This document shows positions 24,581 to 63,935 of a stretch of DNA of 64,000 nucleotides, in pieces; the first letter of the stretch is position 1, and every line of letters begins with the position of its first letter. The notes under the pieces were generated by a model. That model was given only the letters and a program-made list of their open reading frames with translations, was not told the origin of the DNA and searched no databases. Source of the DNA: Alphaproteobacteria bacterium (GTDB lineage: Bacteria > Pseudomonadota > Alphaproteobacteria > UBA828); assembly GCA_963422645.2 (NCBI GenBank), contig CAXXVO010000002.1, forward strand, positions 172,745 through 236,744. The letters are read 5' to 3'. Both the position numbers and the translations under genes were made by a program.

Positions 24581-25766
24581 GCCGGGGTGGCGGTCTACCT
24601 TCAGCACGCTCACTTCCTGCCGGAGGATCGGCTGTCGCAGGTGATGGCCGAGCTCTTCGGCGCGCCGGTGACGGCTGCGACGTTGGCGACGATGAGCGAG
24701 AGGGCGGCCGAGCGGCTGCGGGACGCGGCCTTGCACATACAGGACCTGGCGGCGGGCACGGCGCGGGTGAAACACATGGACGAGACCGGCTTGCGGATCG
24801 GCGGTCAGACGCAGTGGCTTCATGTGATCTGCACGCCGCTGCTGGCGGCGTACCGGGTCAGCGGCAAGCGCGGCGCCCTGCTCTCGGGTGTCTCCGGCAT
24901 CGTCGTGCACGATCACTGGAAGCCGTACTTCGCGATGGAAGGGGTGGAGCACGGCCTGTGCAACGCCCATCACCTGCGGGAGTTGCAGGCGCTGGTGGAC
25001 ATCGAAGGGGAGGCTTGGGCCCGGCGGATGCAGCAGCTCCTGCGCCGAGCCAATCGCGCCGCCCGCATCGCGCTGGACAAGGATATCGCCGTTCCGGCGA
25101 GGCTTGTGGCGCTGATCGAGCGCCGATACGACGAGATCATCGCCGATGCGCTGGCCTTTCACGAGAGCCAACCACCGTTCTCGCCTGGCAAGAGGAAGAA
25201 GCGCCGGAAGCGAAGGATCGGTCACAATCTGGCCTTGAGGCTGCGCGACCACAAATGCGCGGTGCTCCGGTTCCTGATCGACCTCGAGGTCGGGTTCACG
25301 AACAACGAGGCCGAGCGCGACCTTCGGATGATGAAGCTGCGCCAGAAGATCTCCGGGGGCTTCCGGTCCGCGCAGGGGGCCGAGAACTTCGCCATCCTGC
25401 GCAGCGTCATCACCACCGCCAGAAAGCAGGGCTGGAATATCATCGAAGCCCTGACCAGCCCATCGGATCGGCTCATCGCCACCGTCAAGTGCGCGTAAGC
25501 TCACCTGGCACGGGTTCTCCAACAGCGGAGCCATTCTCATAAACGATCATGGTCGACGCCGTGCTGGACCACCCCATAGAATGAAAATCGGTGCCCGTCG
25601 CGCGGGCGGACTTCGGGCCACATCGGGGTAGCTTACCGGTCGCAGTCCGCAAGAGGGGCATCGTGAGCTGTGAAACCCGGCGACCCCAGAGGAGCACACG
25701 GGCGTCGCGTGGGTAGCGTTGTGCCGAATCCCAGAGAATTTTCACAGCAAGAACCTGGGCAGTTAC
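24581..25766 (+). mobile_element. IS66-A, 3' portion only
   Basis: Matches the 3' part of the other IS66-A copies; ends CCTGGGCAGTTAC. Confidence 0.9.
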
Positions 25767-28202
25767 GTTTCAGGCGGTTTTTCGCTGGGTGTCGCGCCCG
25801 AGGTCTGATATTATAATTTGATACCAATTGCACGGTCTCAACCATGCCCAGTACCCTCCCAATGTGCCCTCCAGAGGCGGTCTCGATCGGCAACAGCTGC
25901 TTCGCCGTCCTGATCTCGGACGACACCTTCACCTACTTTTCCAACCTCATTCCCTTTGACAGCCACGCCGCCGATGACCGCACGGCCATGCTCTTGCGGA
26001 TCGGCCGCCTCGCGGCGATCAGCGCGGTCTCGCCGCAGGAACTGGCTGACGCTTTCGCTGTCTCGCGCGCGACGGTGCAGCGCGCACGACGGCGCTACCT
26101 GGCCGAGGGCGAAGCGGGGTTCATGAAGCCCCGGCGCGGTCGCGGGCCGTCGGTGTTCACTCCGGAGTTGGCGGAGAAGGCGACGGCGTTGCTGGCATCG
26201 GGCCTGAGCGGCTCTGCGGCGGCCCGGGTTCTCGGCGTGTCAGCGCCATCGGTCAACAAGTGGCGCCGTCAGGGACTGATCGGCAACACGGAGGCGGATG
26301 GGGAGCCCGGACGCTCAGCGCTGGCTGCGCCGCCTGACGCGGGTGCGGCTCCTGAAGGCCGTGTCGATGAAGAGAGTACCGGTGCCCCGGGGCCGGAGAC
26401 GGCGCCGGGGCTGGAAGCGCAGCCGCAAACGGATCGCAGCGCGCGCGATCGGCGGGACCGGCAGGCGCCGATGGGGCGTGCGACTTGCGATGTTCCGGCT
26501 CGGGTTCTGGCCAGTTGTGGACAGGCGGGGCCGGTCGAACCGCAGTTCGCCGCCGCCGCCCGCGGTGTCCGCTTCGGCGGCGTGCTCGCCGCCCTGCCGG
26601 CCCTGCTGAAGGAAGGTCTTCTCTCCGAGACCGGTCTCCTGCCATTGCTGCCGAAGGGCTATTACGGCTTGCCTACGATCCTGCTCTTCCTGGCCTTCAT
26701 GACCTTGGCGCGGGTGCGCAACCCCGAGAGCCTGCGCTACCAGGCGCCGGGCGAATGGGGCGCCATTCTCGGCCTCGATCGCTGCCCCGAGGTCAAGACG
26801 CTGCGCCGCAAGATCGCTCTCATCGCCGACGACGAGGCCGGCGTGCGGGCGTGGCAGCTCGCCCTTGCCAGGCGCTGGCAAGGCCGACGAGCCGGAGCTC
26901 TGGGCGACGCTGGCCATCGACGGGCACGTCAAGGTCTACTCCGGCCGCAAGGGGCGCTTGCCCAAGCACTTCGTCTCGCGCGAGAAGCTGTGCCTGCCGG
27001 CGAGCGCCAGCTACTGGATCAACGCTCTGGGCGGCAAGCCGCTGCTCTGTCTGCACAAGCCGCTGGACCCGAAGATGGTCGCGGCCATCGAAGCCGACGT
27101 GGTGCCGGCGCTGCAGGAGCTTGGGATCGTTGGCGCCGGGGCGCCGGACCTGACCGCCGAGCATCCCGGCCAGCCGGCGCTCACCCTGGTCTTCGACCGC
27201 GAGGGCTGGAGCCCGGATCTGTTCCGCCGGCTGGCGAGGCGCGGCGTCGCCTGCCTGACCTGGCACAAGAACTTCAGGGGCGAGGACTGGCCGGCCGAGG
27301 ACTTCGGCGCGATGACCGTTCCCATTCACGGACCGGCGGCGGACGGCAGCGCCACCATGCGGCTGGCTGAGAAGCCGGTGACGTTGCCGAACGGCTTCAG
27401 GGTGCGCCAGATCCGCCGCCTGCTCGACAACGGCCGTCAGGTGCCGCTGATCACCACCGATCCGCACAAGCCGATGGCTGAGGTTGCGGGCGCCATGTTC
27501 TCGCGCTGGTCGCAGGAGAACTTCTTCAAGTACATGCGTGACGAGTTCAATCTCGACGCCCTGCCGACCCACGAGCTCGAGCCTCTCGATCCCGCCGCCA
27601 TGGTCGTCAACCCGCTGCGGCGGGCCTATGACAAGGCAATCCATCGCCTCGACCGCCAGCTTGGCCGCCTGCGCAACCGCATCGCCGACACGGCCCGGAA
27701 GAAGCAGCCGACGGCGGAACTCAGGAGGGAAGTCAGGGACCTCCAGGATGTCCGCGACATCGTCAGGGCCAGCCGCAGGGAGACGCCCAAGCACTGCCGG
27801 GCCGGCGACCTCGACGAAGCCGAGCAGCTCGATGCCTTGCCCGCGCGCGAGCGCCTCCTCCTCGACGTCATCCGGATGATCGCCTACCGCGCCGAAACCC
27901 GCATGATGATTCCCGTCATGCAGGCGCAGGGCCACAAGCCCCATCCCCGGAAACTGCTTCAAGCGCTGCTCACCGCCGATGCCGACATCCTGCCGGATCC
28001 TGGCAATGGCCTCCTGCGGGTCCACATTCTTGGCCTCGCAAACGACGCCTGCGACCGTTGGATCGATGCGGTTCTGAGCGACCTGAACGCCACCGAAACG
28101 GTCTTCCCCGGCACCCGTCTGCGCATAGTCTACGACATCGACGGGGCCTCGGAATCCGCGCGGCTCGTGTCACCTAAAATCAGCAGAGGTCAGGAAGTCT
28201 GA
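25767..28202 (+). mobile_element. Element X copy, left end removed by IS66-A; transposase frameshifted
   Basis: ORFs 25844.. and ..28202 match the 786-aa protein; 2-bp deletion near 26884; TIR ends at 28202. Confidence 0.9.
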
Positions 28203-28590
28203 GGTTAGTACGACGACAGGGTTCCCCTGACACTTGTGGCGTGTCGGCTGGTGCGTTGTTGGGAGAATAGATGAGCAGTTGGCTTCGCGCTTGGTCGGTG
28301 GAGGTGGCATAGGTCGGGAAGTTAGAGCGAGTACGGTCAGGGTTCAACCCGAAGGCGGGTCGCATACCGACGTTCTCCAGCTGTTAATGCGGGAGCCTTT
28401 GCCCGTGGGCCCGGCGTAGCCAAGGATTGCGCTCGCTTGCCCGGCAAGGTGTTGGAACCTGAAGTGACCGCAACGGGGTCGCCGTCGAACTCCATCTTAT
28501 GGGCGACGGCACCGGAGCTGATGGGGCTGGTGGACCTCCACGCCGTTCGTCCTCGGAAAGGGTCGGATCGGAGCGGCTGCGCCCGGAAAG

Positions 28591-32869: not shown

Positions 32870-35800
32870 TCAGACTTCCTGACCTCTGCTGATTTTAGGT
32901 GACACGAGCCGCGCGGATTCCGAGGCCCCGTCGATGTCGTAGACTCAGACTTCCTGACCTCTGCTGATTTTAGGTGACACGAGCCGCGCGGATTCCGAGG
33001 CCCCGTCGATGTCGTAGACTATGCGCAGACGGGTGCCGGGGAAGACCGTTTCGGTGGCGTTCAGGTCGCTCAGAACCGCATCGATCCAACGGTCGCAGGC
33101 GTCGTTTGCGAGGCCAAGAATGTGGACCCGCAGGAGGCCACAACTGGCCAGAACCCGAGCCGGAACATCGCAAGTCGCACGCCCCATCGGCGCCTGCCGG
33201 TCCCGCCGATCGCGCGCGCTGCGATCCGTTTGCGGCTGCGCTTCCAGCCCCGGCGCCGTCTCCGGCCCCGGGGCACCGGTACTCTCTTCATCGACACGGC
33301 CTTCAGGAGCCGCACCCGCGTCAGGCGGCGCAGCCAGCGCTGAGCGTCCGGGCTCCCCATCCGCCTCCGTGTTGCCGATCAGTCCCTGACGGCGCCACTT
33401 GTTGACCGATGGCGCTGACACGCCGAGAACCCGGGCCGCCGCAGAGCCGCTCAGGCCCGATGCCAGCAACGCCGTCGCCTTCTCCGCCAACTCCGGAGTG
33501 AACACCGACGGCCCGCGACCGCGCCGGGGCTTCATGAACCCCGCTTCGCCCTCGGCCAGGTAGCGCCGTCGTGCGCGCTGCACCGTCGCGCGCGAGACAG
33601 CGAAAGCGTCAGCCAGTTCCTGCGGCGAGACCGCGCTGATCGCCGCGAGGCGGCCGATCCGCAAGAGCATGGCCGTGCGGTCATCGGCGGCGTGGCTGTC
33701 AAAGGGAATGAGGTTGGAAAAGTAGGTGAAGGTGTCGTCCGAGATCAGGACGGCGAAGCAGCTGTTGCCGATCGAGACCGCCTCTGGAGGGCACATTGGG
33801 AGGGTACTGGGCATGGTTGAGACCGTGCAATTGGTATCAAATTATACTATCAGACCTCGGGCGCGACACCCAGCGAAAAACCGCCTGAAACAACCGAAAT
33901 GTATCAGAATTCAAGGAGTTCCCGGCACGCTGCCCAGAACAGCCAGCATCACGAGGTCAGGAAGTCTGAGACTATGCGCAGACGGGTGCCGGGGAAGACC
34001 GTTTCGGTGGCGTTCAGGTCGCTCAGAACCGCATCGATCCAACGGTCGCAGGCGTCGTTTGCGAGGCCAAGAATGTGGACCCGCAGGAGGCCATTGCCAG
34101 GATCCGGCAGGATGTCGGCATCGGCGGTGAGCAGCGCTTGAAGCAGTTTCCGGGGATGGGGCTTGTGGCCCTGCGCCTGCATGACGGGAAGCATCATGCG
34201 GGTTTCGGCGCGGTAGGCGATCATCCGGATGACGTCGAGGAGGAGGCGCTCGCGCGCGGGCAAGGCATCGAGCTGCTCGGCTTCGTCGAGGTCGCCGGCC
34301 CGGCAGTGCTTGGGCGTCTCCCTGCGGCTGGCCCTGACGATGTCGCGGACATCCTGGAGGTCCCTGACTTCCCTCCTGAGTTCCGCCGTCGGCTGCTTCT
34401 TCCGGGCCGTGTCGGCGATGCGGTTGCGCAGGCGGCCAAGCTGGCGGTCGAGGCGATGGATTGCCTTGTCATAGGCCCGCCGCAGCGGGTTGACGACCAT
34501 GGCGGCGGGATCGAGAGGCTCGAGCTCGTGGGTCGGCAGGGCGTCGAGATTGAACTCGTCACGCATGTACTTGAAGAAGTTCTCCTGCGACCAGCGCGAG
34601 AACATGGCGCCCGCAACCTCAGCCATCGGCTTGTGCGGATCGGTGGTGATCAGCGGCACCTGACGGCCGTTGTCGAGCAGGCGGCGGATCTGGCGCACCC
34701 TGAAGCCGTTCGGCAACGTCACCGGCTTCTCAGCCAGCCGCATGGTGGCGCTGCCGTCCGCCGCCGGTCCGTGAATGGGAACGGTCATCGCGCCGAAGTC
34801 CTCGGCCGGCCAGTCCTCGCCCCTGAAGTTCTTGTGCCAGGTCAGGCAGGCGACGCCGCGCCTCGCCAGCCGGCGGAACAGATCCGGGCTCCAGCCCTCG
34901 CGGTCGAAGACCAGGGTGAGCGCCGGCTGGCCGGGATGCTCGGCGGTCAGGTCCGGCGCCCCGGCGCCAACGATCCCAAGCTCCTGCAGCGCCGGCACCA
35001 CGTCGGCTTCGATGGCCGCGACCATCTTCGGGTCCAGCGGCTTGTGCAGACAGAGCAGCGGCTTGCCGCCCAGAGCGTTGATCCAGTAGCTGGCGCTCGC
35101 CGGCAGGCACAGCTTCTCGCGCGAGACGAAGTGCTTGGGCAAGCGCCCCTTGCGGCCGGAGTAGACCTTGACGTGCCCGTCGATGGCCAGCGTCGCCCAG
35201 AGCTCCGGCTCGTCGGCCTTGCCAGCGCCTGGCAAGGGCGAGCTGCCACGCCCGCACGCCGGCCTCGTCGTCGGCGATGAGAGCGATCTTGCGGCGCAGC
35301 GTCTTGACCTCGGGGCAGCGATCGAGGCCGAGAATGGCGCCCCATTCGCCCGGCGCCTGGTAGCGCAGGCTCTCGGGGTTGCGCACCCGCGCCAAGGTCA
35401 TGAAGGCCAGGAAGAGCAGGATCGTAGGCAAGCCGTAATAGCCCTTCGGCAGCAATGGCAGGAGACCGGTCTCGGAGAGAAGACCTTCCTTCAGCAGGGC
35501 CGGCAGGGCGGCGAGCACGCCGCCGAAGCGGACACCGCGGGCGGCGGCGGCGAACTGCGGTTCGACCGGCCCCGCCTGTCCACAACTGGCCAGAACCCGA
35601 GCCGGAACATCGCAAGTCGCACGCCCCATCGGCGCCTGCCGGTCCCGCCGATCGCGCGCGCTGCGATCCGTTTGCGGCTGCGCTTCCAGCCCCGGCGCCG
35701 TCTCCGGCCCCGGGGCACCGGTACTCTCTTCATCGACACGGCCTTCAGGAGCCGCACCCGCGTCAGGCGGCGCAGCCAGCGCTGAGCGTCCGGGCTCCCC

Positions 35801-36413
35801 ATCCGCCTCCGTGTTGCCGATCAGTCCCTGACGGCGCCACTTGTTGACCGATGGCGCTGACACGCCGAGAACCCGGGCCGCCGCAGAGCCGCTCAGGCCC
35901 GATGCCAGCAACGCCGTCGCCTTCTCCGCCAACTCCGGAGTGAACACCGACGGCCCGCGACCGCGCCGGGGCTTCATGAACCCCGCTTCGCCCTCGGCCA
36001 GGTAGCGCCGTCGTGCGCGCTGCACCGTCGCGCGCGAGACAGCGAAAGCGTCAGCCAGTTCCTGCGGCGAGACCGCGCTGATCGCCGCGAGGCGGCCGAT
36101 CCGCAAGAGCATGGCCGTGCGGTCATCGGCGGCGTGGCTGTCAAAGGGAATGAGGTTGGAAAAGTAGGTGAAGGTGTCGTCCGAGATCAGGACGGCGAAG
36201 CAGCTGTTGCCGATCGAGACCGCCTCTGGAGGGCACATTGGGAGGGTACTGGGCATGGTTGAGACCCCGTGCAATTGGTATCAAATTATAATATCAGACC
36301 TCGGGCGCGACACCCAGCGAAAAACCGCCTGAAACAACCGAAATGTATCAGAATTCAAGGAGTTCCCGGCACGCTGCCCAGAACAGCCAGCATCACGAGG
36401 TCAGGAAGTCTGA
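32870..36413 (-). mobile_element. Element X copy (frameshifted) containing a nested deleted copy; flanked by ACC on both sides
   Basis: Both TIRs present; ACC at 32867-32869 and 36414-36416; same 2-bp deletion as the 25767 copy. Confidence 0.9.
32945..33969 (-). mobile_element. Internally deleted element X (1025 bp) encoding an in-frame 289-aa product
   Basis: Both TIRs, GAC TSD (32942-32944 and 33970-33972), deletion junction at a TGG microhomology. Confidence 0.92.
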
Positions 36414-40237: not shown

Positions 40238-42007
40238 TTGCCGTGAAACAGATTCTGGCGAGGGACGCGCGGTGACGCTCCAACCCCGAGGTCACGGCGT
40301 TGGCTGAGACCGCCAGGGTCGGCGCGGCGGAGACGAGCGGTGGACTTCCCCGATGTGGTCCGAAGCGGTCCCGCGTAGCCGGCTGACGAGATGCGGGCCG
40401 CTCAGGCGGCCTTGAGTTCCGCGCCTACGGGCTCGATGTAGCCGTAGCGGCGGAGCATGCGGATCCACCGAGGAGCGTTGCGCTTGACCATCAGAGCGTC
40501 GTAGTCGGCCGTGCGGTCGTAGTAGGGCCTGCCGGTCTTGAGCACCACATAGATGATGCGCAGCATCTTGTGAGCGCCGGCGACGATGGCGCGCTTGTAG
40601 CCGCGCCGGGCGGCGAGGGCGCGGTGATGAGCCTCGAACTGGCACCCCTTGGTTCGGGCCGCGCCGTGGGCACACTCGACGAGGCAGGCGCGCAGGGTCT
40701 TGGAGCCCATGCGGGTGCGTGCGTTGCGGCGCTTGCCCCCGCTCTCGTTGTTGCCGGGGCAGAGCCCGGCCCAGGCGGCGAAGTGCTCCTTGGAGGCGAA
40801 CACGCCGATGTCGGGGCCGATCTCGATGAGGATGGTCGAGGCGGCGGTGCGGTCGATGCCGGGGATGGTGGTCAGCAGACGGAGCTGCTCCTCCCACGGT
40901 GTCATCTGCCCGTCGATCTTCCTGGTGTAGGACGCGATGCGCGCCTCAAGCGCGTCATGCTCCTCCAGCAGGTCGTTGAGCATGAAGCGGTCGTTGTCGC
41001 CCAGGCTCAGGGTGAGCGCCTCGCCGAGCCCCTCCAGCTTGTTCGCAACGTGGCTGGTGAGCGAGGCGAGGATGACCTCGCGCGCCGTCCCCTGCGCCAG
41101 GCCGTCGAGGATCTTCCGGCCGTTGACGCCGAAGACGTCGGAGAGGATGCCGCCGATGCGCGCACCGGCGCGGTCGATGATCTTCTGCACGCGGTTGCGC
41201 ACGGCGGAGCGCTGCCTGACCAGGACGCGGCGCTGGCGGCTCAGTGCGCGCAGCTCCCGGAACGGCTCAGGCGGAACGTGGGAAGGCGTGCAGAGCCCGA
41301 ACTGGCACACGCAGGCCAGCCACACGCTGTCCGCCACGTCGGTCTTGCGCCCCTTCAACTGCTTCACCTGACGCGCATGCACCAGGATCGCCTCGAGCCC
41401 GGCCGCCTCCAGGGCCGCGAAGGGCGCCTGCCAGTAGACCCCGGTCCCTTCCATCACCGCAGCCTCGACGCCGTGACCGGTCAGCCACGCGACCATCTCC
41501 TCCAGACCGCTCGGCAGCGTGCCGAAGCAGCGCGTCTCCACCACCGGCTCACCCTCGCCCTCACAGAGGCGAACCGTCGCGGTGATCTCCATCTTGTGCA
41601 CGTCCAGACCCGCCGCGCGCGGCCGGACGACGTGCAAGCCTTCCGTCTTCATCGCCTTCCTCCTCATTTGCGCTCTCGCCACGGCGGCGTACGATCACGC
41701 CGTGGCATCGCCACGGTGGAGGCGGGGACAGCGGTCGGAAGAACACGCATCCGACGAGCGGGTGCGGTGCAATTTGCCGCGCGTCCACGGCCACGGGCCG
41801 GGTACAATACGGGGTGCGGAGCCGGCCGCCGGAAGCAGTTTTGTCATCGGGAACTACGTCACCGATATAACGACGCTCACACGTCCCCACCTCCGCCAAT
41901 ACCCATCCTGACACGGCAAATGGGTGCAAGCGCAAGGAAAACGTCAGCCGAACCGCTCCTGTTTCATGCCACGGGGTGGCTCAGAACCGCGGGGACCATG
42001 ACTGTTT
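40238..42007 (-). mobile_element. IS110 family element with ~350-bp left and ~165-bp right non-coding ends
   Basis: Ends inferred from homology with the mini-element in IS66-A; AA core at both junctions (minus strand). Confidence 0.72.
40402..41652 (-). CDS. IS110 family DEDD recombinase
   Basis: AGLDVHK, MEGTGVYW, KTDVADS, TIPGI, GLCPGNNESGGK. Confidence 0.93.
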   Translation of the reverse strand: MKTEGLHVVRPRAAGLDVHKMEITATVRLCEGEGEPVVETRCFGTLPSGLEEMVAWLTGHGVEAAVMEGTGVYWQAPFAALEAAGLEAILVHARQVKQLKGRKTDVADSVWLACVCQFGLCTPSHVPPEPFRELRALSRQRRVLVRQRSAVRNRVQKIIDRAGARIGGILSDVFGVNGRKILDGLAQGTAREVILASLTSHVANKLEGLGEALTLSLGDNDRFMLNDLLEEHDALEARIASYTRKIDGQMTPWEEQLRLLTTIPGIDRTAASTILIEIGPDIGVFASKEHFAAWAGLCPGNNESGGKRRNARTRMGSKTLRACLVECAHGAARTKGCQFEAHHRALAARRGYKRAIVAGAHKMLRIIYVVLKTGRPYYDRTADYDALMVKRNAPRWIRMLRRYGYIEPVGAELKAA

Positions 42008-51376: not shown

Positions 51377-51552
51377 GAAAGCGGGCCGGCACCGGCGGTC
51401 GACCGCAGCATCACCCTTTGCCGCACCTCGCTTAAATGGTAACTGCCCAGGTCGTCTGATTTGTCATTTTGGGCCAGTGGATTGAGGCGTTTCTCGTTCG
51501 GAGTTGGTGGAAAGGGCTTGACGGGAATTTCGGGAAATGACTCAACAACGAC

Positions 51553-53058
51553 ATGAGCAATCCCGAGTCGCCGCGCGGCCCTTCGACGGGAGCAGCGCCC
51601 GAAACGCCCGCGCAGAAGATCGCCCGCCTGGAGGAGGAGAACGCCCGGCTTCGGGAGGAAAATGCCTGGCTTCGGCAGCAGAACGCGCGGCTGGAAGAGC
51701 AAGTCGCGCGTCTCGTCGAGCGCATCGAGGAGTTGGAGCGCCGTCTCGGCCTCAACAGCGGCAACAGCGGCAAGCCGCCTTCGAGCGATGGGCTGAGGAA
51801 GCCGAATTCGAAGCGGCGAACCCGAAGCCTGCGCGGCAAATCGGGCCGCAAGCCCGGTGGCCAGCCCGGCCACAAGGGCAAGACGCTGCGCCGCGCCGAT
51901 CACCCGGATCGGGTGAAGGATCACGTCCCGGCTTCCTGCAAGGGATGCGGTTCGCCGCTTTCGGACGCGGCCAGGGCGGGAACGCCCGTCGCCCGCCAGG
52001 TGTTCGATCTGCCCGAGCCGAGCCCCCTGGAGGTGACCGAGCACCGGGCGCATGCCAAGTGCTGCGGGCATTGCGGGACGGTGACCCGGGCGGCGTTCCC
52101 CGACGGGGTGTCGGCGCCGGTGCAGTACGGCCCGCGCATTGCCGGGGTGGCGGTCTACCTTCAGCACGCTCACTTCCTGCCGGAGGATCGGCTGTCGCAG
52201 GTGATGGCCGAGCTCTTCGGCGCGCCGGTGACGGCTGCGACGTTGGCGACGATGAGCGAGAGGGCGGCCGAGCGGCTGCGGGACGCGGCCTTGCACATAC
52301 AGGACCTGGCGGCGGGCACGGCGCGGGTGAAACACATGGACGAGACCGGCTTGCGGATCGGCGGTCAGACGCAGTGGCTTCATGTGATCTGCACGCCGCT
52401 GCTGGCGGCGTACCGGGTCAGCGGCAAGCGCGGCGCCCTGCTCTCGGGTGTCTCCGGCATCGTCGTGCACGATCACTGGAAGCCGTACTTCGCGATGGAA
52501 GGGGTGGAGCACGGCCTGTGCAACGCCCATCACCTGCGGGAGTTGCAGGCGCTGGTGGACATCGAAGGGGAGGCTTGGGCCCGGCGGATGCAGCAGCTCC
52601 TGCGCCGAGCCAATCGCGCCGCCCGCATCGCGCTGGACAAGGATATCGCCGTTCCGGCGAGGCTTGTGGCGCTGATCGAGCGCCGATACGACGAGATCAT
52701 CGCCGATGCGCTGGCCTTTCACGAGAGCCAACCACCGTTCTCGCCTGGCAAGAGGAAGAAGCGCCGGAAGCGAAGGATCGGTCACAATCCGGCCTTGAGG
52801 CTGCGCGACCACAAATGCGCGGTGCTCCGGTTCCTGATCGACCTCGAGGTCGGGTTCACGAACAACGAGGCCGAGCGCGACCTTCGGATGATGAAGCTGC
52901 GCCAGAAGATCTCCGGGGGCTTCCGGTCCGCGCAGGGGGCCGAGAACTTCGCCATCCTGCGCAGCGTCATCACCACCGCCAGAAAGCAGGGCTGGAATAT
53001 CATCGAAGCCCTGACCAGCCCATCGGATCGGCTCATCGCCACCGTCAAGTGCGCGTAA
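51553..53058 (+). CDS. IS66 TnpC transposase (full length)
   Basis: Coiled coil, GKPPSSD, Zn finger, HMDETG, TNNEAERDLR; carries HNP where the other copies have HNL. Confidence 0.92.
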   Translation: MSNPESPRGPSTGAAPETPAQKIARLEEENARLREENAWLRQQNARLEEQVARLVERIEELERRLGLNSGNSGKPPSSDGLRKPNSKRRTRSLRGKSGRKPGGQPGHKGKTLRRADHPDRVKDHVPASCKGCGSPLSDAARAGTPVARQVFDLPEPSPLEVTEHRAHAKCCGHCGTVTRAAFPDGVSAPVQYGPRIAGVAVYLQHAHFLPEDRLSQVMAELFGAPVTAATLATMSERAAERLRDAALHIQDLAAGTARVKHMDETGLRIGGQTQWLHVICTPLLAAYRVSGKRGALLSGVSGIVVHDHWKPYFAMEGVEHGLCNAHHLRELQALVDIEGEAWARRMQQLLRRANRAARIALDKDIAVPARLVALIERRYDEIIADALAFHESQPPFSPGKRKKRRKRRIGHNPALRLRDHKCAVLRFLIDLEVGFTNNEAERDLRMMKLRQKISGGFRSAQGAENFAILRSVITTARKQGWNIIEALTSPSDRLIATVKCA

Positions 53059-53100: not shown

Positions 53101-53310
53101 AAACGATCATGGTCGACGCCGTGCTGGACCACCCCATAGAATGAAAATCGGTGCCCGTCGCGCGGGCGGACTTCGGGCCACATCGGGGTAGCTTACCGGT
53201 CGCAGTCCGCAAGAGGGGCATCGTGAGCTGTGAAACCCGGCGACCCCAGAGGAGCACACGGGCGTCGCGTGGGTAGCGTTGTGCCGAATCCCAGAGAATT
53301 TTCACAGCAA
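53101..53310 (+). mobile_element. Transposase-less mini-IS110 embedded in IS66-A (also at 25541-25750 and 60644-60853)
   Basis: Similar to both non-coding ends of the IS110 at 40238-42007 (see findings). Confidence 0.65.
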
Positions 53311-53334
53311 GAACCTGGGCAGTTACCTTAAATG

Positions 53335-53389
53335 GTAACTGCCCAGGTCGTCTGATTTGTCATTTTGGGCCAGTGGATTGAGGCGTTTC
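53335..53389 (+). mobile_element. 55-bp IS66-A left-end stub fused to IS66-M
   Basis: Identical to 51439-51493. Confidence 0.9.
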
Positions 53390-53531
53390 GTAACTACCCA
53401 GGTACCCCAATCCTGAGTTGAGGACGGTGATTATGGCGGCGGCCGCGGCCTGGTTCTGCCACCGCGATTGGTTCTTGACCTCATAGAGTTGCGGGACTAT
53501 GGACTGCTCTCTCGCGTGACGGGAGCGGTCC

Positions 53532-54197
53532 ATGGGGTATTTCGGCTCGAAGGCGACAGCAGGTCTGTGCCAAGCGCTGATTGCGCTGATGCCGCCGCAC
53601 TCCGTCTACATCGAAAGCCACCTTGGGGGCGGGGCGCTGATGAAGCGCAAGCCGCCGGCCGTGCGTTCGATCGGCATCGACCGCGATGCGCAGGCGCTCG
53701 AGGCCTTCGTCTGCGACTACCCGGTCGATCTGGTTCACGGCTGTGCCCATGACTTCCTGGCCTCGTTCCCGTTCCTGGGCCCGGAGCTGGTTTACAGCGA
53801 TCCGCCCTATCTGCACGCGACCCGCCGCTCGGCGCAGCGCTACCGCTTCGAGTACGAGGAGGCCGGCCACGTCGCGCTTCTCGCGCTGCTCAAGGCTCTG
53901 CCCTGCCAGGTCATGATCTCGGGCCATCCGTCGGCGCTCTATGACGAGGTGCTGGCGGGATGGCGCCGGCTGGCGCTGCAGGTCACGACCCAGGGTCTGG
54001 TGCGAACCGAGGTCGTCTGGTTCAACTACGCCCCCGACCGGATGCATTGGGCCAGCCACGCAGGCCGGAACTTCACCGACCGCCAGCGCATCAAGCGCAA
54101 GGCAGCCAACTGGGGCCGGCGCTACCAGGCCTTGCCGCCGGGCGAACGCCTCGCCGTGCTCGCCGCCATGATGGCCGTCGAGGCCGAAGACACGTGA
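53532..54197 (+). CDS. Dam-like DNA adenine methyltransferase within IS66
   Basis: Protein identical to 19134-19799; DPPY. Confidence 0.82.
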   Translation: MGYFGSKATAGLCQALIALMPPHSVYIESHLGGGALMKRKPPAVRSIGIDRDAQALEAFVCDYPVDLVHGCAHDFLASFPFLGPELVYSDPPYLHATRRSAQRYRFEYEEAGHVALLALLKALPCQVMISGHPSALYDEVLAGWRRLALQVTTQGLVRTEVVWFNYAPDRMHWASHAGRNFTDRQRIKRKAANWGRRYQALPPGERLAVLAAMMAVEAEDT

Positions 54198-55732
54198 CGG
54201 TGTCGCACTGGCACGAAGACCTCGCCGCCCGTAACGAGGCCTTCTGCTGCCTGAAGGAGCTTCTCGAGCCATCATCCCTCGCAACCACTGTCGTCGTTGC
54301 CGTCCGGGAATGGGGGCAGGGGCTGCTGCGATCAGCCACCGCGCTCGCCCGGGAAAATGCCGCACTCGAGCAGGAGAACGCGGCCCTGCGCGAGCGCATC
54401 GCCGAACTCGAGCGCAGCGCGGCCCTCAACAGCACCACAAGCAGCAAGCCCCCCGCCAGCGACGGGCTCAAGAAGAAAAGCGGAGCCCAGAGGCGCACCC
54501 AAAGCCAGCGCGGAAAGTCCGGCGGGCCCAGTGGCGGCCAGCCCGGCCACAAGGGAACCACCCTCGCGCGGAGCGACAGCCCGGACCGTGTCGTCGATCA
54601 CCACCCCTCCACCTGTTCCGGCTGTGGCGTCGAGCTCTCGGACGCCGACCGGCAAGGCGCGCCCGCCTGTCGGCAGGTCTTCGACGTACCCGAGCCGCAG
54701 CCTCTCGAGGTCACCGAACACCGCGCCCATCGCTGCCTCTGCGGCGCATGCGGCACGCTGACACGAGCCGCCTTCCCGCCGGGCGTCACCGCCCCGGTCC
54801 AGTACGGCCCTCGCATCACCGCTTGGGTGAGTTACCTGCTGTACGCCCAGTTCGTGCCCGAGAAGCGTCTGGCCGAACTCATGAGCGACATCTTCGCGGT
54901 GTCCATCTCCACTGCCACGATCGCCGCCATGGGCCGGCGCACAGCGCAGCGCTTCGAGGGCTTCCTCGACCATGTCGCCGATCTGATCCGCACGCAGGCG
55001 CCGGTCAAGCACCTCGACGAGACCGGCCTGCGTATCGCCGCCCGTACCCGCTGGCTCCATGTGCTGTGCACCCCGTTGCTCACCGTCCTGCGCATCGGCG
55101 AGGGACGCGGCGATGTCGAAAAGAACCTGAAAGGCATCCTCGTCCACGACGACTTCGCCCCCTACTTCACCATCAAGGGCGTCCGCCACGGCGCCTGCAA
55201 CGCACATCACCTGCGCGAACTCCAGGCCCTGATCGACATCGAGAAGGAGGAATGGGCGGCGAGCATGCACCGCCTGCTTCAGCGCGCGCGCAGGGCCGCC
55301 CGCTTCGCCCGTGAGAAAGACCGTCAAGTCCCCGCCTCCCTGGTGGCCCGCATCTCAAGGGCATGGGACCGTATCCTCGAAGAAGCCATCGCCTTCCATG
55401 AGGCCCAACCGCCGCTCCAGATCGCAAAGCGAGGGCGAAAGAAACGCCGCATCGGCCACAACCTCGCGCGCCGCCTTCAAAAGCATAAGGAGGGCTGCCT
55501 GCGCTTCCTCACCGACCTGCGCACGCCGTTCACGAATAACGAGGCGGAGCGTGACATCCGTATGAACAAAGTGCATGAGAAGATCTCAGGCGGCTTCCGC
55601 TCCCTGCAAGGCGCCTGCAACTTCGCCGGAATGCGCAGCGTCATCGTCACCGCTCGAAAGCAAGGCTGGAACATCCTGCAAATCCTGGCGCACCCGGAAC
55701 CGATGCAGCTGATCCCTATACTGCGCTCCTGA
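54194..55732 (+). CDS. IS66 TnpC transposase
   Basis: GTGA overlap with the MTase; IS66 motifs intact. Confidence 0.9.
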   Translation: MTVSHWHEDLAARNEAFCCLKELLEPSSLATTVVVAVREWGQGLLRSATALARENAALEQENAALRERIAELERSAALNSTTSSKPPASDGLKKKSGAQRRTQSQRGKSGGPSGGQPGHKGTTLARSDSPDRVVDHHPSTCSGCGVELSDADRQGAPACRQVFDVPEPQPLEVTEHRAHRCLCGACGTLTRAAFPPGVTAPVQYGPRITAWVSYLLYAQFVPEKRLAELMSDIFAVSISTATIAAMGRRTAQRFEGFLDHVADLIRTQAPVKHLDETGLRIAARTRWLHVLCTPLLTVLRIGEGRGDVEKNLKGILVHDDFAPYFTIKGVRHGACNAHHLRELQALIDIEKEEWAASMHRLLQRARRAARFAREKDRQVPASLVARISRAWDRILEEAIAFHEAQPPLQIAKRGRKKRRIGHNLARRLQKHKEGCLRFLTDLRTPFTNNEAERDIRMNKVHEKISGGFRSLQGACNFAGMRSVIVTARKQGWNILQILAHPEPMQLIPILRS

Positions 55733-55898
55733 ACTTCTCCGGCTCATCCTGAGTATCGCTGTCCTCTCATCTTGTTCGCGACGCGGCGTTCATCATCCTC
55801 TCGCGCTCAAGAGAGTAGGCACCCCCGCGGCGTGGGGGCGTTGACGCAAAAGGAACTGGCTTGTTCCATAAGAGAGAGGGGGTACCTGGGCAGTTACC

Positions 55899-58981: not shown

Positions 58982-60869
58982 GTAACTGCCCAGGTCGTCT
59001 GATTTGTCATTTTGGGCCAGTGGATTGAGGCGTTTCTCGTTCGGAGTTGGTGGAAAGGGCTTGACGGGAATTTCGGGAAATGACTCAACAACGACATGAG
59101 CAATCCCGAGTCGCCGCGCGGCCCTTCGACGGGAGCAGCGCCCGAAACGCCCGCGCAGAAGATCGCCCGCCTGGAGGAGGAGAACGCCCGGCTTCGGGAG
59201 GAAAATGCCTGGCTTCGGCAGTAGAACGCGCGGCTGGAAGAGCAAGTCGCGCGTCTCGTCGAGCGCATCGAGGAGTTGGAGCGCCGTCTCGGCCTCAACA
59301 GCGGCAACAGCGGCAAGCCGCCTTCGAGCGATGGGCTGAGGAAGCCGAATTCGAAGCGGCGAACCCGAAGCCTGCGCGGCAAATCGGGCCGCAAGCCCGG
59401 TGGCCAGCCCGGCCACAAGGGCAAGACGCTGCGCCGCGCCGATCACCCGGATCGGGTGAAGGATCACGTCCCGGCTTCCTGCAAGGGATGCGGTTCGCCG
59501 CTTTCGGACGCGGCCAGGGCGGGAACGCCCGTCGCCCGCCAGGTGTTCGATCTGCCCGAGCCGAGCCCCCTGGAGGTGACCGAGCACCGGGCGCATGCCA
59601 AGTGCTGCGGGCATTGCGGGACGGTGACCCGGGCGGCGTTCCCCGACGGGGTGTCGGCGCCGGTGCAGTACGGCCCGCGCATTGCCGGGGTGGCGGTCTA
59701 CCTTCAGCACGCTCACTTCCTGCCGGAGGATCGGCTGTCGCAGGTGATGGCCGAGCTCTTCGGCGCGCCGGTGACGGCTGCGACGTTGGCGACGATGAGC
59801 GAGAGGGCGGCCGAGCGGCTGCGGGACGCGGCCTTGCACATACAGGACCTGGCGGCGGGCACGGCGCGGGTGAAACACATGGACGAGACCGGCTTGCGGA
59901 TCGGCGGTCAGACGCAGTGGCTTCATGTGATCTGCACGCCGCTGCTGGCGGCGTACCGGGTCAGCGGCAAGCGCGGCGCCCTGCTCTCGGGTGTCTCCGG
60001 CATCGTCGTGCACGATCACTGGAAGCCGTACTTCGCGATGGAAGGGGTGGAGCACGGCCTGTGCAACGCCCATCACCTGCGGGAGTTGCAGGCGCTGGTG
60101 GACATCGAAGGGGAGGCTTGGGCCCGGCGGATGCAGCAGCTCCTGCGCCGAGCCAATCGCGCCGCCCGCATCGCGCTGGACAAGGATATCGCCGTTCCGG
60201 CGAGGCTTGTGGCGCTGATCGAGCGCCGATACGACGAGATCATCGCCGATGCGCTGGCCTTTCACGAGAGCCAACCACCGTTCTCGCCTGGCAAGAGGAA
60301 GAAGCGCCGGAAGCGAAGGATCGGTCACAATCTGGCCTTGAGGCTGCGCGACCACAAATGCGCGGTGCTCCGGTTCCTGATCGACCTCGAGGTCGGGTTC
60401 ACGAACAACGAGGCCGAGCGCGACCTTCGGATGATGAAGCTGCGCCAGAAGATCTCCGGGGGCTTCCGGTCCGCGCAGGGGGCCGAGAACTTCGCCATCC
60501 TGCGCAGCGTCATCACCACCGCCAGAAAGCAGGGCTGGAATATCATCGAAGCCCTGACCAGCCCATCGGATCGGCTCATCGCCACCGTCAAGTGCGCGTA
60601 AGCTCACCTGGCACGGGTTCTCCAACAGCGGAGCCATTCTCATAAACGATCATGGTCGACGCCGTGCTGGACCACCCCATAGAATGAAAATCGGTGCCCG
60701 TCGCGCGGGCGGACTTCGGGCCACATCGGGGTAGCTTACCGGTCGCAGTCCGCAAGAGGGGCATCGTGAGCTGTGAAACCCGGCGACCCCAGAGGAGCAC
60801 ACGGGCGTCGCGTGGGTAGCGTTGTGCCGAATCCCAGAGAATTTTCACAGCAAGAACCTGGGCAGTTAC
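58982..60869 (+). mobile_element. IS66-A complete (1888 bp)
   Basis: TIRs present; TSD ATTAACGA. Confidence 0.95.
59096..60601 (+). pseudogene. IS66 TnpC with a nonsense mutation
   Basis: CAG>TAG at 59222-59224 relative to the 51553 copy. Confidence 0.85.
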
Positions 60870-60877
60870 ATTAACGA

Positions 60878-61419
60878 TAGACAACGAGGTGATGTGGGCT
60901 AGTTTCCTGGTCCAAAAGTTCGTACGCCTTCTGGGGTGGTTTCAGCGTTGGTCCGCGAAATTCTTACCGTACTTCTCAATACGCGCGATGACGGCTGAAA
61001 AACCCAGCGCCGTGACCCCCACCAGCACAAAGATTGCCACGGCGATAATCGCAATATCGGAGCCGATCGCCGGGATGCTCACGCCGGCAACGATGAACGC
61101 CACAATGGCTACGACCAAGAAAAATACGGGCATCTACCCCATTCCCTTCGATTTCAAATCCCGCACGACATCGCGCTGGTTAATGTTATCGTGGTTTGAT
61201 GCTGTGATTGTGCCAAGATATTGGCCTAATCCTGCTTTGTATTGGTCCATTCGTTTCCATCCTTTTTGAGCCTTGCAGTGCTTATGCGAAAGATCATGCG
61301 CATTTCTTCGTCAAGTTCCACATCACCAGAGGCAATAATTGAACAGGACTCCCTAGTGAAGCCAATACAGTTGCTGTTGAAGAACGTGATGAAGTTTTGG
61401 CGGTCGCGACGGTTCATCC
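60878..61419 (-). other. AT-rich segment with short or fragmentary ORFs (one hydrophobic, 60942-61133)
   Basis: Visibly lower GC than the flanks; no recognisable motifs. Confidence 0.35.
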
Positions 61420-63780
61420 TCAGACTTCCTGACCTCTGCTGATTTTAGGTGACACGAGCCGCGCGGATTCCGAGGCCCCGTCGATGTCGTAGACTATGCG
61501 CAGACGGGTGCCGGGGAAGACCGTTTCGGTGGCGTTCAGGTCGCTCAGAACCGCATCGATCCAACGGTCGCAGGCGTCGTTTGCGAGGCCAAGAATGTGG
61601 ACCCGCAGGAGGCCATTGCCAGGATCCGGCAGGATGTCGGCATCGGCGGTGAGCAGCGCTTGAAGCAGTTTCCGGGGATGGGGCTTGTGGCCCTGCGCCT
61701 GCATGACGGGAAGCATCATGCGGGTTTCGGCGCGGTAGGCGATCATCCGGATGACGTCGAGGAGGAGGCGCTCGCGCGCGGGCAAGGCATCGAGCTGCTC
61801 GGCTTCGTCGAGGTCGCCGGCCCGGCAGTGCTTGGGCGTCTCCCTGCGGCTGGCCCTGACGATGTCGCGGACATCCTGGAGGTCCCTGACTTCCCTCCTG
61901 AGTTCCGCCGTCGGCTGCTTCTTCCGGGCCGTGTCGGCGATGCGGTTGCGCAGGCGGCCAAGCTGGCGGTCGAGGCGATGGATTGCCTTGTCATAGGCCC
62001 GCCGCAGCGGGTTGACGACCATGGCGGCGGGATCGAGAGGCTCGAGCTCGTGGGTCGGCAGGGCGTCGAGATTGAACTCGTCACGCATGTACTTGAAGAA
62101 GTTCTCCTGCGACCAGCGCGAGAACATGGCGCCCGCAACCTCAGCCATCGGCTTGTGCGGATCGGTGGTGATCAGCGGCACCTGACGGCCGTTGTCGAGC
62201 AGGCGGCGGATCTGGCGCACCCTGAAGCCGTTCGGCAACGTCACCGGCTTCTCAGCCAGCCGCATGGTGGCGCTGCCGTCCGCCGCCGGTCCGTGAATGG
62301 GAACGGTCATCGCGCCGAAGTCCTCGGCCGGCCAGTCCTCGCCCCTGAAGTTCTTGTGCCAGGTCAGGCAGGCGACGCCGCGCCTCGCCAGCCGGCGGAA
62401 CAGATCCGGGCTCCAGCCCTCGCGGTCGAAGACCAGGGTGAGCGCCGGCTGGCCGGGATGCTCGGCGGTCAGGTCCGGCGCCCCGGCGCCAACGATCCCA
62501 AGCTCCTGCAGCGCCGGCACCACGTCGGCTTCGATGGCCGCGACCATCTTCGGGTCCAGCGGCTTGTGCAGACAGAGCAGCGGCTTGCCGCCCAGAGCGT
62601 TGATCCAGTAGCTGGCGCTCGCCGGCAGGCACAGCTTCTCGCGCGAGACGAAGTGCTTGGGCAAGCGCCCCTTGCGGCCGGAGTAGACCTTGACGTGCCC
62701 GTCGATGGCCAGCGTCGCCCAGAGCTCCGGCTCGTCGGCGCCTTGCCAGCGCCTGGCAAGGGCGAGCTGCCACGCCCGCACGCCGGCCTCGTCGTCGGCG
62801 ATGAGAGCGATCTTGCGGCGCAGCGTCTTGACCTCGGGGCAGCGATCGAGGCCGAGAATGGCGCCCCATTCGCCCGGCGCCTGGTAGCGCAGGCTCTCGG
62901 GGTTGCGCACCCGCGCCAAGGTCATGAAGGCCAGGAAGAGCAGGATCGTAGGCAAGCCGTAATAGCCCTTCGGCAGCAATGGCAGGAGACCGGTCTCGGA
63001 GAGAAGACCTTCCTTCAGCAGGGCCGGCAGGGCGGCGAGCACGCCGCCGAAGCGGACACCGCGGGCGGCGGCGGCGAACTGCGGTTCGACCGGCCCCGCC
63101 TGTCCACAACTGGCCAGAACCCGAGCCGGAACATCGCAAGTCGCACGCCCCATCGGCGCCTGCCGGTCCCGCCGATCGCGCGCGCTGCGATCCGTTTGCG
63201 GCTGCGCTTCCAGCCCCGGCGCCGTCTCCGGCCCCGGGGCACCGGTACTCTCTTCATCGACACGGCCTTCAGGAGCCGCACCCGCGTCAGGCGGCGCAGC
63301 CAGCGCTGAGCGTCCGGGCTCCCCATCCGCCTCCGTGTTGCCGATCAGTCCCTGACGGCGCCACTTGTTGACCGATGGCGCTGACACGCCGAGAACCCGG
63401 GCCGCCGCAGAGCCGCTCAGGCCCGATGCCAGCAACGCCGTCGCCTTCTCCGCCAACTCCGGAGTGAACACCGACGGCCCGCGACCGCGCCGGGGCTTCA
63501 TGAACCCCGCTTCGCCCTCGGCCAGGTAGCGCCGTCGTGCGCGCTGCACCGTCGCGCGCGAGACAGCGAAAGCGTCAGCCAGTTCCTGCGGCGAGACCGC
63601 GCTGATCGCCGCGAGGCGGCCGATCCGCAAGAGCATGGCCGTGCGGTCATCGGCGGCGTGGCTGTCAAAGGGAATGAGGTTGGAAAAGTAGGTGAAGGTG
63701 TCGTCCGAGATCAGGACGGCGAAGCAGCTGTTGCCGATCGAGACCGCCTCTGGAGGGCACATTGGGAGGGTACTGGGCAT
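61420..63780 (-). CDS. 786-aa putative DDE transposase with N-terminal tandem HTH domains
   Basis: Two HTH-like segments; AIDGH, VFDREG, RWSQENFFK triad; coiled coil; stop codon is the last 3 bp of the TIR. Confidence 0.8.
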   Translation of the reverse strand: MPSTLPMCPPEAVSIGNSCFAVLISDDTFTYFSNLIPFDSHAADDRTAMLLRIGRLAAISAVSPQELADAFAVSRATVQRARRRYLAEGEAGFMKPRRGRGPSVFTPELAEKATALLASGLSGSAAARVLGVSAPSVNKWRRQGLIGNTEADGEPGRSALAAPPDAGAAPEGRVDEESTGAPGPETAPGLEAQPQTDRSARDRRDRQAPMGRATCDVPARVLASCGQAGPVEPQFAAAARGVRFGGVLAALPALLKEGLLSETGLLPLLPKGYYGLPTILLFLAFMTLARVRNPESLRYQAPGEWGAILGLDRCPEVKTLRRKIALIADDEAGVRAWQLALARRWQGADEPELWATLAIDGHVKVYSGRKGRLPKHFVSREKLCLPASASYWINALGGKPLLCLHKPLDPKMVAAIEADVVPALQELGIVGAGAPDLTAEHPGQPALTLVFDREGWSPDLFRRLARRGVACLTWHKNFRGEDWPAEDFGAMTVPIHGPAADGSATMRLAEKPVTLPNGFRVRQIRRLLDNGRQVPLITTDPHKPMAEVAGAMFSRWSQENFFKYMRDEFNLDALPTHELEPLDPAAMVVNPLRRAYDKAIHRLDRQLGRLRNRIADTARKKQPTAELRREVRDLQDVRDIVRASRRETPKHCRAGDLDEAEQLDALPARERLLLDVIRMIAYRAETRMMLPVMQAQGHKPHPRKLLQALLTADADILPDPGNGLLRVHILGLANDACDRWIDAVLSDLNATETVFPGTRLRIVYDIDGASESARLVSPKISRGQEV

Positions 63781-63935
63781 GGTTGAGACCGTGCAATTGG
63801 TATCAAATTATACTATCAGACCTCGGGCGCGACACCCAGCGAAAAACCGCCTGAAACAACCGAAATGTATCAGAATTCAAGGAGTTCCCGGCACGCTGCC
63901 CAGAACAGCCAGCATCACGAGGTCAGGAAGTCTGA
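61420..63935 (-). mobile_element. Element X complete (2516 bp), 17-bp perfect TIRs TCAGACTTCCTGACCTC
   Basis: Both TIRs present; no matching TSD (TCC versus GCT). Confidence 0.9.

Follow-up and report, generated by a model that had tools for sequence, protein, structure and literature searches.

Probable origin of a 210-bp segment near the right end of an IS66-family insertion sequence as a transposase-less IS110 derivative

What is a 210-bp segment without a transposase gene doing between the tnpC gene of an insertion sequence and the last 16 bp of its right inverted repeat? The question is raised by IS66-A, an element present in the stretch of DNA analyzed here (the window, 64 kb), which corresponds to G000:C3:172745-236744, G000 being the source genome. 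A preliminary description had read the segment as a non-autonomous IS110 MITE inserted in the IS66 end and spread by IS66. This reading was supported by the ends of the segment, by relatives of IS66-A that lack it, and by free copies in other genomes. Table 1 lists the features discussed.

Table 1. Features of the segment, its host element and the related IS110 element, in window positions
Feature	Position	Strand	Description
Host element IS66-A, carrying the segment	51439..53326	+	1888 bp, single-ORF IS66-family IS
tnpC-type IS66 transposase gene	51553..53058	+	501 aa; Pfam DDE_Tnp_IS66 (1.2e-38), zf-IS66, DUF6444
Transposase-less mini-IS110 (probable MITE)	53101..53310	+	Further copies at 25541-25750 and 60644-60853
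Left-end module	53101..53148	+	AAACGATCATGG, hairpin, CCACCCC box, left sub-terminal repeat TGAAAAT (53142-53148)
Left-end hairpin	53110-53114 / 53127-53131	+	TGGTC / GACCA
Promoter-like site	53113..53142	+	TCGACG-18 nt-TAGAAT; consensus scan, sequence only
Three-helix stem-loop from IS110 right non-coding end	53162..53210	+	Predicted fold; apical loop CACATCGGGGTA at 53179-53190
Second hairpin	53236..53273	+	GGCGAC...GTCGC, in the fold
Right sub-terminal repeat and right terminus	53298..53310	+	ATTTTCA and TTTCACAGCAA
Outer 16 bp of IS66-A right inverted repeat	53311..53326	+	GAACCTGGGCAGTTAC; separated by the mini-element from the remaining IS66-A
Full-length IS110-family element, relative of the parent of the mini-element	40238..42007	-	~1770 bp; ORF 41682..40402; 426 aa

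The host belongs to the IS66 family by its DDE_Tnp_IS66 transposase, its terminal repeats starting with GTAA and its 8-bp target duplications. The termini on both sides are GTAACTGCCCAGG, and the duplicated target is CTTAAATG for the copy listed in Table 1 (51431-51438 and 53327-53334) and ATTAACGA for the copy at 58982-60869. We take IS66-A to be a single-ORF (ISBst12-like) element; it resembles this group in the three traits just named and differs from it by the foreign 210-bp insert between tnpC and the last 16 bp. The 66 full-length copies found in the source genome are 99.4-100% identical, indicating a recent burst.

Similarity of the segment to the ends of an IS110-family element

The three copies of the segment in the window are one and the same 210-nt string, with no mismatches among them, and lie 16 bp inside the right end of IS66-A, as first described; the insertion point is 42 nt past the tnpC stop codon. 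The segment opens with AAACGATCATGG and closes with the right terminus given in Table 1. It was compared with the two ends of the full-length IS110-family element of the window (120 nt on the left and 230 nt on the right), using 500 dinucleotide-preserving shuffles as controls. The left end aligned along 46 nt without gaps, 35 of them identical, with a local score of 37 (shuffles: mean 16.1, sd 2.3, max 29; z = 9.0). The middle block aligned over 43 columns with 2 gaps and also scored 37 (shuffles: mean 18.1, sd 2.3, max 27; z = 8.3); in the IS110 element this block is located about 45 nt past the transposase stop codon. The right terminus of the segment and that of the IS110 element, TTTCACGGCAA, share 10 of 11 nucleotides. 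The three matches are colinear, running from the left end through the right non-coding block to the right terminus, and the similarity to IS110 ends claimed at the outset is significant against the shuffled controls (z = 8-9). Both the segment and the full-length IS110 copies have AA at each junction, with no longer target duplication. In the 210 bp there is no transposase gene, and the left-end module is joined directly to the right non-coding end; we refer to the segment as the mini-element. Its left-end and right-end motifs are common to six mini-elements and five longer elements, full-length IS110 relatives among them. No match to the mini-element was found in the plasmid collection. Rfam yielded no family at threshold in the window, and permissive scans of the mini-element and the IS110 element returned chance-level hits only.

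The IS110 element of the window codes for a protein with the Pfam domains DEDD_Tnp_IS110 and Transposase_20. The source genome has 47-49 near-identical copies, and their diverging flanks set the boundaries as …AA|ACAGTCATGG … TTTCACGGC|AA…. When these copies were compared with the mini-element as its possible autonomous partners, the left end was only 76% identical and the right terminus differed (G to A). Transposases of the clade are 416-426 aa long and are encoded between long non-coding regions. One of the traits of the IS1111 subgroup, sub-terminal inverted repeats of 7-17 bp, is present (7-9 bp). In contrast, the subgroup has transposases of about 330-350 aa (PMC11187229) and a long non-coding region only downstream of the gene, while the element of the window codes for 426 aa and has about 330 nt upstream and about 165 nt downstream. 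Internal-deletion derivatives occur in the clade, such as a 1170-bp element (L020) that retains a partial transposase.

Several other observations concern the insertion sites of these IS110 elements. In the source genome, as many as five copies follow one another head to tail (G000:C11:48130-56934), each joined to the next as …TTTCACGGCAA(A)ACAGTCATGG…, and further arrays are located at C16:27194-32460, C10:44781-50048, C8:169719-173217, C8:727945-731444 and C5:476549-480048; these tandem arrays imply that existing copies of the element serve as targets for it, at their right-end junction. Two of the 47 full-length copies (G000:C21:59039-60769 and G000:C8:774894-776624) are separated by only 1 nt and 4 nt, respectively, from the outer edge of an IS66-A right end, which places them about 20 bp from the right terminus of a mini-element; a rough estimate of the chance expectation is about 0.09 such cases. 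Targets were surveyed in the copies of the source genome and in the three of seven multi-copy groups whose flanks diverge enough to set boundaries. The three bases preferred to the left of the insertion point differ among members of the clade (loci L125-L133, L116-L120 and L149-L154 and the copies of the source genome): they are ACA in the source genome, whereas a Paracoccaceae MAG has TCA and a Bryobacterales MAG has CCA. The core was mostly followed by A. The target is otherwise loose, in contrast to IS621-type elements, whose targets are described as long and specific. One group of the clade has a fixed REP-like target.

Insertion into IS66-A and free copies in other genomes

When the last 300 nt of the IS66-A body were used as a query against the source genome, 103 of the 104 ends found ran into the mini-element. 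The preliminary description had called for a search for empty alleles, and two were found. One is a 95%-identical IS66-A variant in the source genome (G000:C17:48511-50154), which runs …CAACAGCGGAATCATCCCCAT GAACAACCTGGGCAGTTAC, straight into the 16-bp IS66 end, and finishes as …CCCCATGAACAACCTGGGCAGTTAC. The other is a 92%-identical relative in a congener, G011 (locus L006), and reads …CCCCAGAAACAACCTGGGCAGTTAC. At the junction the empty alleles have CAT GAACAA CCTGGG and CAG AAACAA CCTGGG, and the filled site minus the insert has …TCTCAT AA GAACCTGGG…; the sequences are similar and not identical, as expected of relatives at 92-95% identity. The end of a second element, IS66-M, to which the restored IS66-A end had originally been likened, is as it was described then. 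A relative of IS66-A with about 95% identity, present in two contigs from marine RNA libraries, departs from the IS66-A sequence right after the tnpC stop codon, and one of these contigs ends 75 nt further on. On these alignments, the mini-element is an insertion into IS66-A and not ancestral IS66 sequence.

In the source genome the mini-element has multiplied only as a passenger of IS66-A. A sensitive BLAST search detected 88 intact copies, all of them with the IS66-A left flank AGCCATTCTCAT. The IS66 right end follows in 87 (exact in 81 and with one or two changes in 6), and in the remaining copy it is cut by another insertion sequence. Another 33 partial pieces are accounted for by interruptions or contig ends. 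The other matches in this genome are weak and belong to the resident IS110 only (mini-element positions 1-46 at 76% and 71-102 at 81%). None of the 88 intact copies was outside IS66-A, and searches of the same genome found neither an empty IS66-A at 99-100% identity nor an excision scar. The absence of free copies, together with that of high-identity IS66-A lacking the insert, indicates that in this genome the mini-element moves only with IS66-A. With the burst of IS66-A postdating the insertion, the IS66 transposase must need no more of the right repeat than its outer 16 bp; evidently, these terminal 16 bp are enough for continued transposition of IS66-A.

Within the source genome the mini-element has itself been interrupted four to five times at each of three places, positions 42-50, 90-94 and 196-203 (53142-53150, 53190-53194 and 53296-53303 in window equivalents), with duplications of 9, 5 and 8 bp, respectively. 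At 90-94, within the conserved hairpin, the interrupting sequence that was examined derives from another abundant insertion sequence, with CAGACTTCCTGACC… ends, and is about 1 kb long. The recurrent interruptions may be repeated events or copies of one event. Contigs from four RNA or possibly-RNA sequencing runs, which as contigs cannot show absence, contained no cover of the mini-element: two possibly-RNA runs of organism A yielded nothing, and in two marine RNA-library runs the cover was limited to the tnpC end and an IS66 left end.

The expectation that free copies would exist held for other genomes, where same-boundary copies of about 200-210 bp were detected, and failed for the source genome, where there were none. 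Four copies lie outside any IS66 in the congener, with the same boundaries (AAAC…TCATGG … TTTCACGGCAA); one of them (L002) is 87% identical to the mini-element and the other three (L004, L006 and L008) 69-73%. A scan of public genomes for the left-end motif located a 201-bp version, 78-82% identical, in a gammaproteobacterial MAG (OZ241844.1), where its 15 rows (11 distinct sequences) occupy different sites. Five of the 15 share a REP-like target, …CCCCTCACCCCA | element | ACCCCTCTCCCGGGGGGAGAGGGGC. This MAG has a single full-length relative, with a transposase 65-66% identical; it agrees with those five in its left flank and in the first 13 nucleotides of its left end, and appears to be interrupted. 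The alpha- and gammaproteobacterial mini-elements have a common fusion of left and right ends, …ATGAAAAT(C/T)GGTGC(C/T)CGTCGCGCGG…. Since this fusion is found in free copies elsewhere at 78-87% identity, the deletion predates the insertion into IS66-A. A Binatia MAG (L026) has a 238-bp mini-element with a different fusion point, which indicates a separate origin. The mini-element was found only in the source genome and the congener, both in a family-wide search of 44 genomes and among 61 relatives.

A conserved right-end hairpin and the left-end module

The middle block shared with IS110 had been described as enclosed by a GCGGAC/GTCCGC stem, which is present in the minimum-free-energy fold. 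The block is the top of a predicted three-helix stem-loop with helices GCGGGC/GTCCGC, GACT/GGTC and GGGC/GCTT, and a homologous hairpin is located at 40338-40365 in the IS110 element. The second hairpin has counterparts, recognized by eye, in full-length elements (CCAAC...GTTGG) and in the gammaproteobacterial mini-elements (GCCGCC...GGCGGC). To place the stem-loop in the wider clade, 80 loci with transposase relatives (51-97% identity) were collected from Alphaproteobacteria, Pseudomonadales, Vicinamibacterales, Bryobacterales and Binatia, giving 74 distinct downstream regions. In most right ends, 45-115 nt past the stop codon, a lineage-specific stem closes a loop with the pattern CA…C(G)GGGG... 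The loop sequence is near-invariant, and the stems include GGAC/GTCC, GGGC/GTCC, GGGC/GCCT, GGGC/GCCC, GGGT/ACCC, CGGC/GCCG, CGGGC/GCCCG, GTTGTC/GACAAC and CCCAAGGC/GCCTTGGG. By a simple rule, a stem of at least 3 bp surrounds the loop motif in 30 of 36 distinct variants. The six others are L083, L096, L108, L109, L125 and the mini-element L002; L096 misses the loop pattern alone and shows CGGAC/GTCCG by eye, and one or two pairs are broken in L002 and in the L083 lineage. All mini-elements found in the clade retain the hairpin region, L002 with its broken pair or pairs.

A narrow covariance model of 28 positions recovered close relatives only and missed those at 51-63% identity; therefore, the distant hairpins were compared in classes of loop length. 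The hairpin windows were chosen by the longest stem in each sequence, a rule that favors pairing and bears on all the percentages that follow. Among the mini-elements alone (nine distinct variants), 94.1% of 135 cells were paired, compared with 28-47% when the 3′ partners were slid; two pairs change on both sides, and 3 of 500 shuffles reached the paired percentage and 63 of 500 the covariation score. The class with a 12-nt loop (15 sequences) was 98.3% paired, compared with 28-50% after sliding, and one of its pairs passes through GC, GU and AU; 146 of 500 shuffles reached the observed covariation because this set varies little. In the class with a 14-nt loop (nine sequences), three pairs change on both sides (8/500 shuffles) and the covariation score was 0.222 versus 0.126 (16/500). 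Covariation support for the apical hairpin is thus modest, and compensatory changes were found in the apical hairpin only. The G·U pairs, of which there are many, are possible only on the strand that is sense for the transposase, which fits an RNA or a strand-specific single-stranded form. Of the structured-RNA cassette that the preliminary description had proposed, a conserved and covarying apical hairpin is kept in the right-end region.

A consensus fold computed by RNAalifold from 14 right ends, aligned with MAFFT without structural information, had an invariant 6-bp CUUCGG/UCGGGG hairpin with no covariation; it was dropped in favor of the varying GGRC/GYYY stem. In one full-length relative (L079:2519-2560), a 10-nt tandem duplication lies within the conserved hairpin loop (…CACATCGGGCCACATCGGGG…), and three sibling copies in the same MAG have stem-breaking changes instead (GAAC/GGCC).

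The left-end module is also conserved. The stem of its hairpin differs on both sides between mini-elements, with TGGCCG/CGGCCA (L004) or TGGCCA/TGGCCA in place of the pair shown in Table 1, and the CCACCCC box is invariant in the left ends of six mini-elements and five longer elements. TGAAAAT is the inverted complement of ATTTTCA, which adjoins the right terminus, and these sub-terminal repeats covary, being TGAAAAT/ATTTTCA in mini-elements and TGAAACAG/CTGTTTCA in full-length elements. A consensus scan of the mini-element detected one promoter-like site, with 0.1 expected from shuffles, directed toward the hairpin region and, beyond it, outward across the right end of IS66-A. Its -10-like hexamer is TAGAAT in the alpha- and gammaproteobacterial mini-elements and TGGCAT or TAGCAT in full-length elements.

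The notion that the mini-element carries a bridge or seek RNA found no support in its original form; the one covarying motif that matches the donor is in the left non-coding region of full-length elements, a region absent from the mini-element. In those elements, the right terminus and core recur within the left non-coding region, at a distance of about 190-230 nt from the left end, and this copy tracks the terminus: CGGCAAA accompanies the end …CACGGCAA, and CAGCAAAC accompanies the end …CACAGCAA. A donor-binding guide would be expected to look like this. The location of the motif agrees with published work, in which the bridge RNA of the IS110 group is placed upstream of the transposase gene (PMC11208160; PMC11187229). 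In the mini-element, complementarity between the interior and its own flanks or junctions was limited to 6-9-mers at about the chance rate, and a search of the retained region for a pair of loops complementary to target and donor found none. One 9-mer, GCTGTGAAA, pairs with the right terminus of the mini-element in the source genome and is missing from the L002 homologue; the right flanks of these two are alike at about 9 of 12 positions, a possible coincidence. As far as these sources describe the bridge RNA and seekRNA of IS110 and IS1111 elements (PMC11208160; PMC11187229), the elements of this clade resemble them in that an end next to a DEDD transposase is structured and non-coding, its fold being conserved while a stem varies, and the mini-element differs from them in that its retained region has no target and donor loop pair. 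The mini-element probably lacks the bridge RNA, or at least does not carry all of it. Our best guess is that the right-end hairpin is a transposase-binding or regulatory element, and it may be needed in cis, since two separately derived lineages of mini-elements keep it.

Origin of the segment and comparison with known systems

Taken together, the segment is very probably an internally deleted, non-autonomous MITE of an IS110-family element from the clade of the 1.77-kb element, carried by IS66-A as a passenger. It consists of about 46 nt of an IS110 left end and about 150 nt of the right non-coding end. The mini-element was already complete when it entered IS66-A by IS110-type recombination at an AA dinucleotide, and within the source genome the IS66 transposase has copied it from then on. 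Elsewhere, members of this MITE family are presumably moved in trans by full-length relatives, from which the DEDD transposase would come and, probably, also a bridge RNA encoded in their left non-coding region. The retained hairpin could act as a functional RNA or as a strand-specific structure, most likely in binding of the transposase, and could be transcribed from the promoter-like site at the left end.

Two other origins were weighed. The segment could be an original part of IS66-A whose likeness to IS110 arose by chance, by convergence, or by capture of IS66 sequence by an IS110 element, and its presence in every high-identity IS66-A copy of the source genome speaks for this. Chance is hard to reconcile with alignment z-scores of 8-9, and an original part should not be missing from relatives of IS66-A, turn up with identical boundaries where no IS66 sequence surrounds it, or have its end motifs in IS110 relatives of five bacterial groups; this origin is scarcely credible, being refuted as far as alignments, empty relatives and free copies allow. 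Decay in place, in which a full-length IS110 relative inserted in the IS66-A end and lost its middle there without ever moving as a mini-element, is improbable. It would account for the lack of free copies in the source genome, and derivatives such as the 1170-bp element prove that internal deletions do arise in the clade. However, the same fusion is found in free copies of two other genomes, and the alignment suggests that the IS66-borne mini-element falls within the clade of free ones; the deletion would then have preceded the insertion into IS66-A, contrary to what decay in place requires.

It may be asked in addition whether the passenger MITE was kept because it is useful to IS66-A, either as an outward promoter that raises tnpC expression across a circle or tandem junction, or through an RNA acting on the resident IS110 transposase. 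Compatible with this are the 103 filled junctions against one empty variant in the same genome, the promoter-like site facing the IS66 end, and a head-to-tail arrangement of an IS66-A right end, 8 bp and a left end at 53326/53335. Nonetheless, the gap in copy number can be a pure founder effect, the variant that burst having happened to carry the mini-element, and no precedent for the use of junction promoters in the IS66 family was found in the literature read; we consider such co-option unlikely. A bolder proposal, to which we give only a small chance, is that the mini-element is an active cassette combining a left-end promoter with a right-end hairpin, the latter being a second, so far undescribed RNA or strand-specific element that the clade needs beside the bridge RNA. 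In IS66-A, the cassette would serve as an outward or junction promoter, or as a decoy or landing pad for the resident IS110 transposase. If true, it would explain why the hairpin is retained in at least two independently derived mini-element lineages, and would account for the 103-to-1 excess of filled ends and for the two IS110 copies 1 and 4 nt outside IS66-A.

The IS4321/IS5075 elements, which encode DEDD transposases, insert in the terminal repeats of other transposons. The MITE in IS66-A is comparable to them in that an insertion related to a DEDD-transposase element, with sub-terminal inverted repeats, lies at a fixed short distance inside the terminal repeat of an unrelated element. In contrast, IS4321/IS5075 are complete elements that move autonomously and encode transposases of about 330-350 aa. 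The insert in IS66-A is a MITE, the transposases of its clade have 416-426 aa and long non-coding regions on both sides, and its host stayed fully active and amplified it.

The closest published case is MITEPpu9, the ssr9 module of the IS110-family element ISPpu9 in Pseudomonas putida KT2440 (PMC12288879). It is a small RNA gene flanked by a copy of each end box of ISPpu9, the left one of 43 bp containing a palindrome and the right one of 16 bp; recombination takes place at AG, and minicircles of the MITE itself are formed (PMC12288879). Both elements are transposase-less and combine end boxes of the parent, a conserved dinucleotide and a non-coding RNA region; MITEPpu9 is thought to use the parent transposase in trans and occurs linked and unlinked to the IS (PMC12288879). 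On the basis of the same text (PMC12288879), several differences can be named. The payload of the mini-element is the right non-coding end of the parent clade itself, with its conserved hairpin. Its family spans Alpha- and Gammaproteobacteria, with the separate 238-bp mini-element of the clade in a Binatia MAG. It sits inside another insertion sequence and was multiplied by that element and not by IS110 machinery. Finally, minicircles are described for MITEPpu9, while the mini-element is known from its sequence alone; a circle junction of the latter would read …TTTCACAGCAA joined to ACGATCATGG….

The mini-element in IS66-A is a clear natural case of an IS110-family MITE multiplied about a hundredfold by the transposase of an unrelated element, a passenger spread that is invisible to annotation based on transposase genes. 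Searches of full texts found no report of an IS110-type MITE fixed inside another insertion sequence and amplified by it, nor of the right-end hairpin of this clade; the supplementary tables of the bridge-RNA and seekRNA papers may already cover the clade, with a covariance model. For IS66-A, 16 bp of the right end evidently suffice for transposition to continue. For bridge recombinases, a lead is the hairpin that a large IS110 clade conserves at its right non-coding end, and its role in donor recognition, transposase binding or regulation would be easy to test.

Nested insertion sequences dominate the window (1-64000), with at least three IS66-type variants and one IS110. Directly after the IS66-A copy of Table 1 and its 8-bp duplication are the first 55 nt of another IS66-A left end (53327-53402), which is interrupted at 53390 by another IS66-type element (53390-55897). 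The back-to-back IS66-A ends in 53327-53402 can form a hairpin with a 15-bp stem and a terminator-like score. An insertion sequence of about 2.4 kb with TCAGACTTCCTGACC ends is present in inverted copies, for example, at 25767-28204 versus 33961-36335 and 61418-63857.
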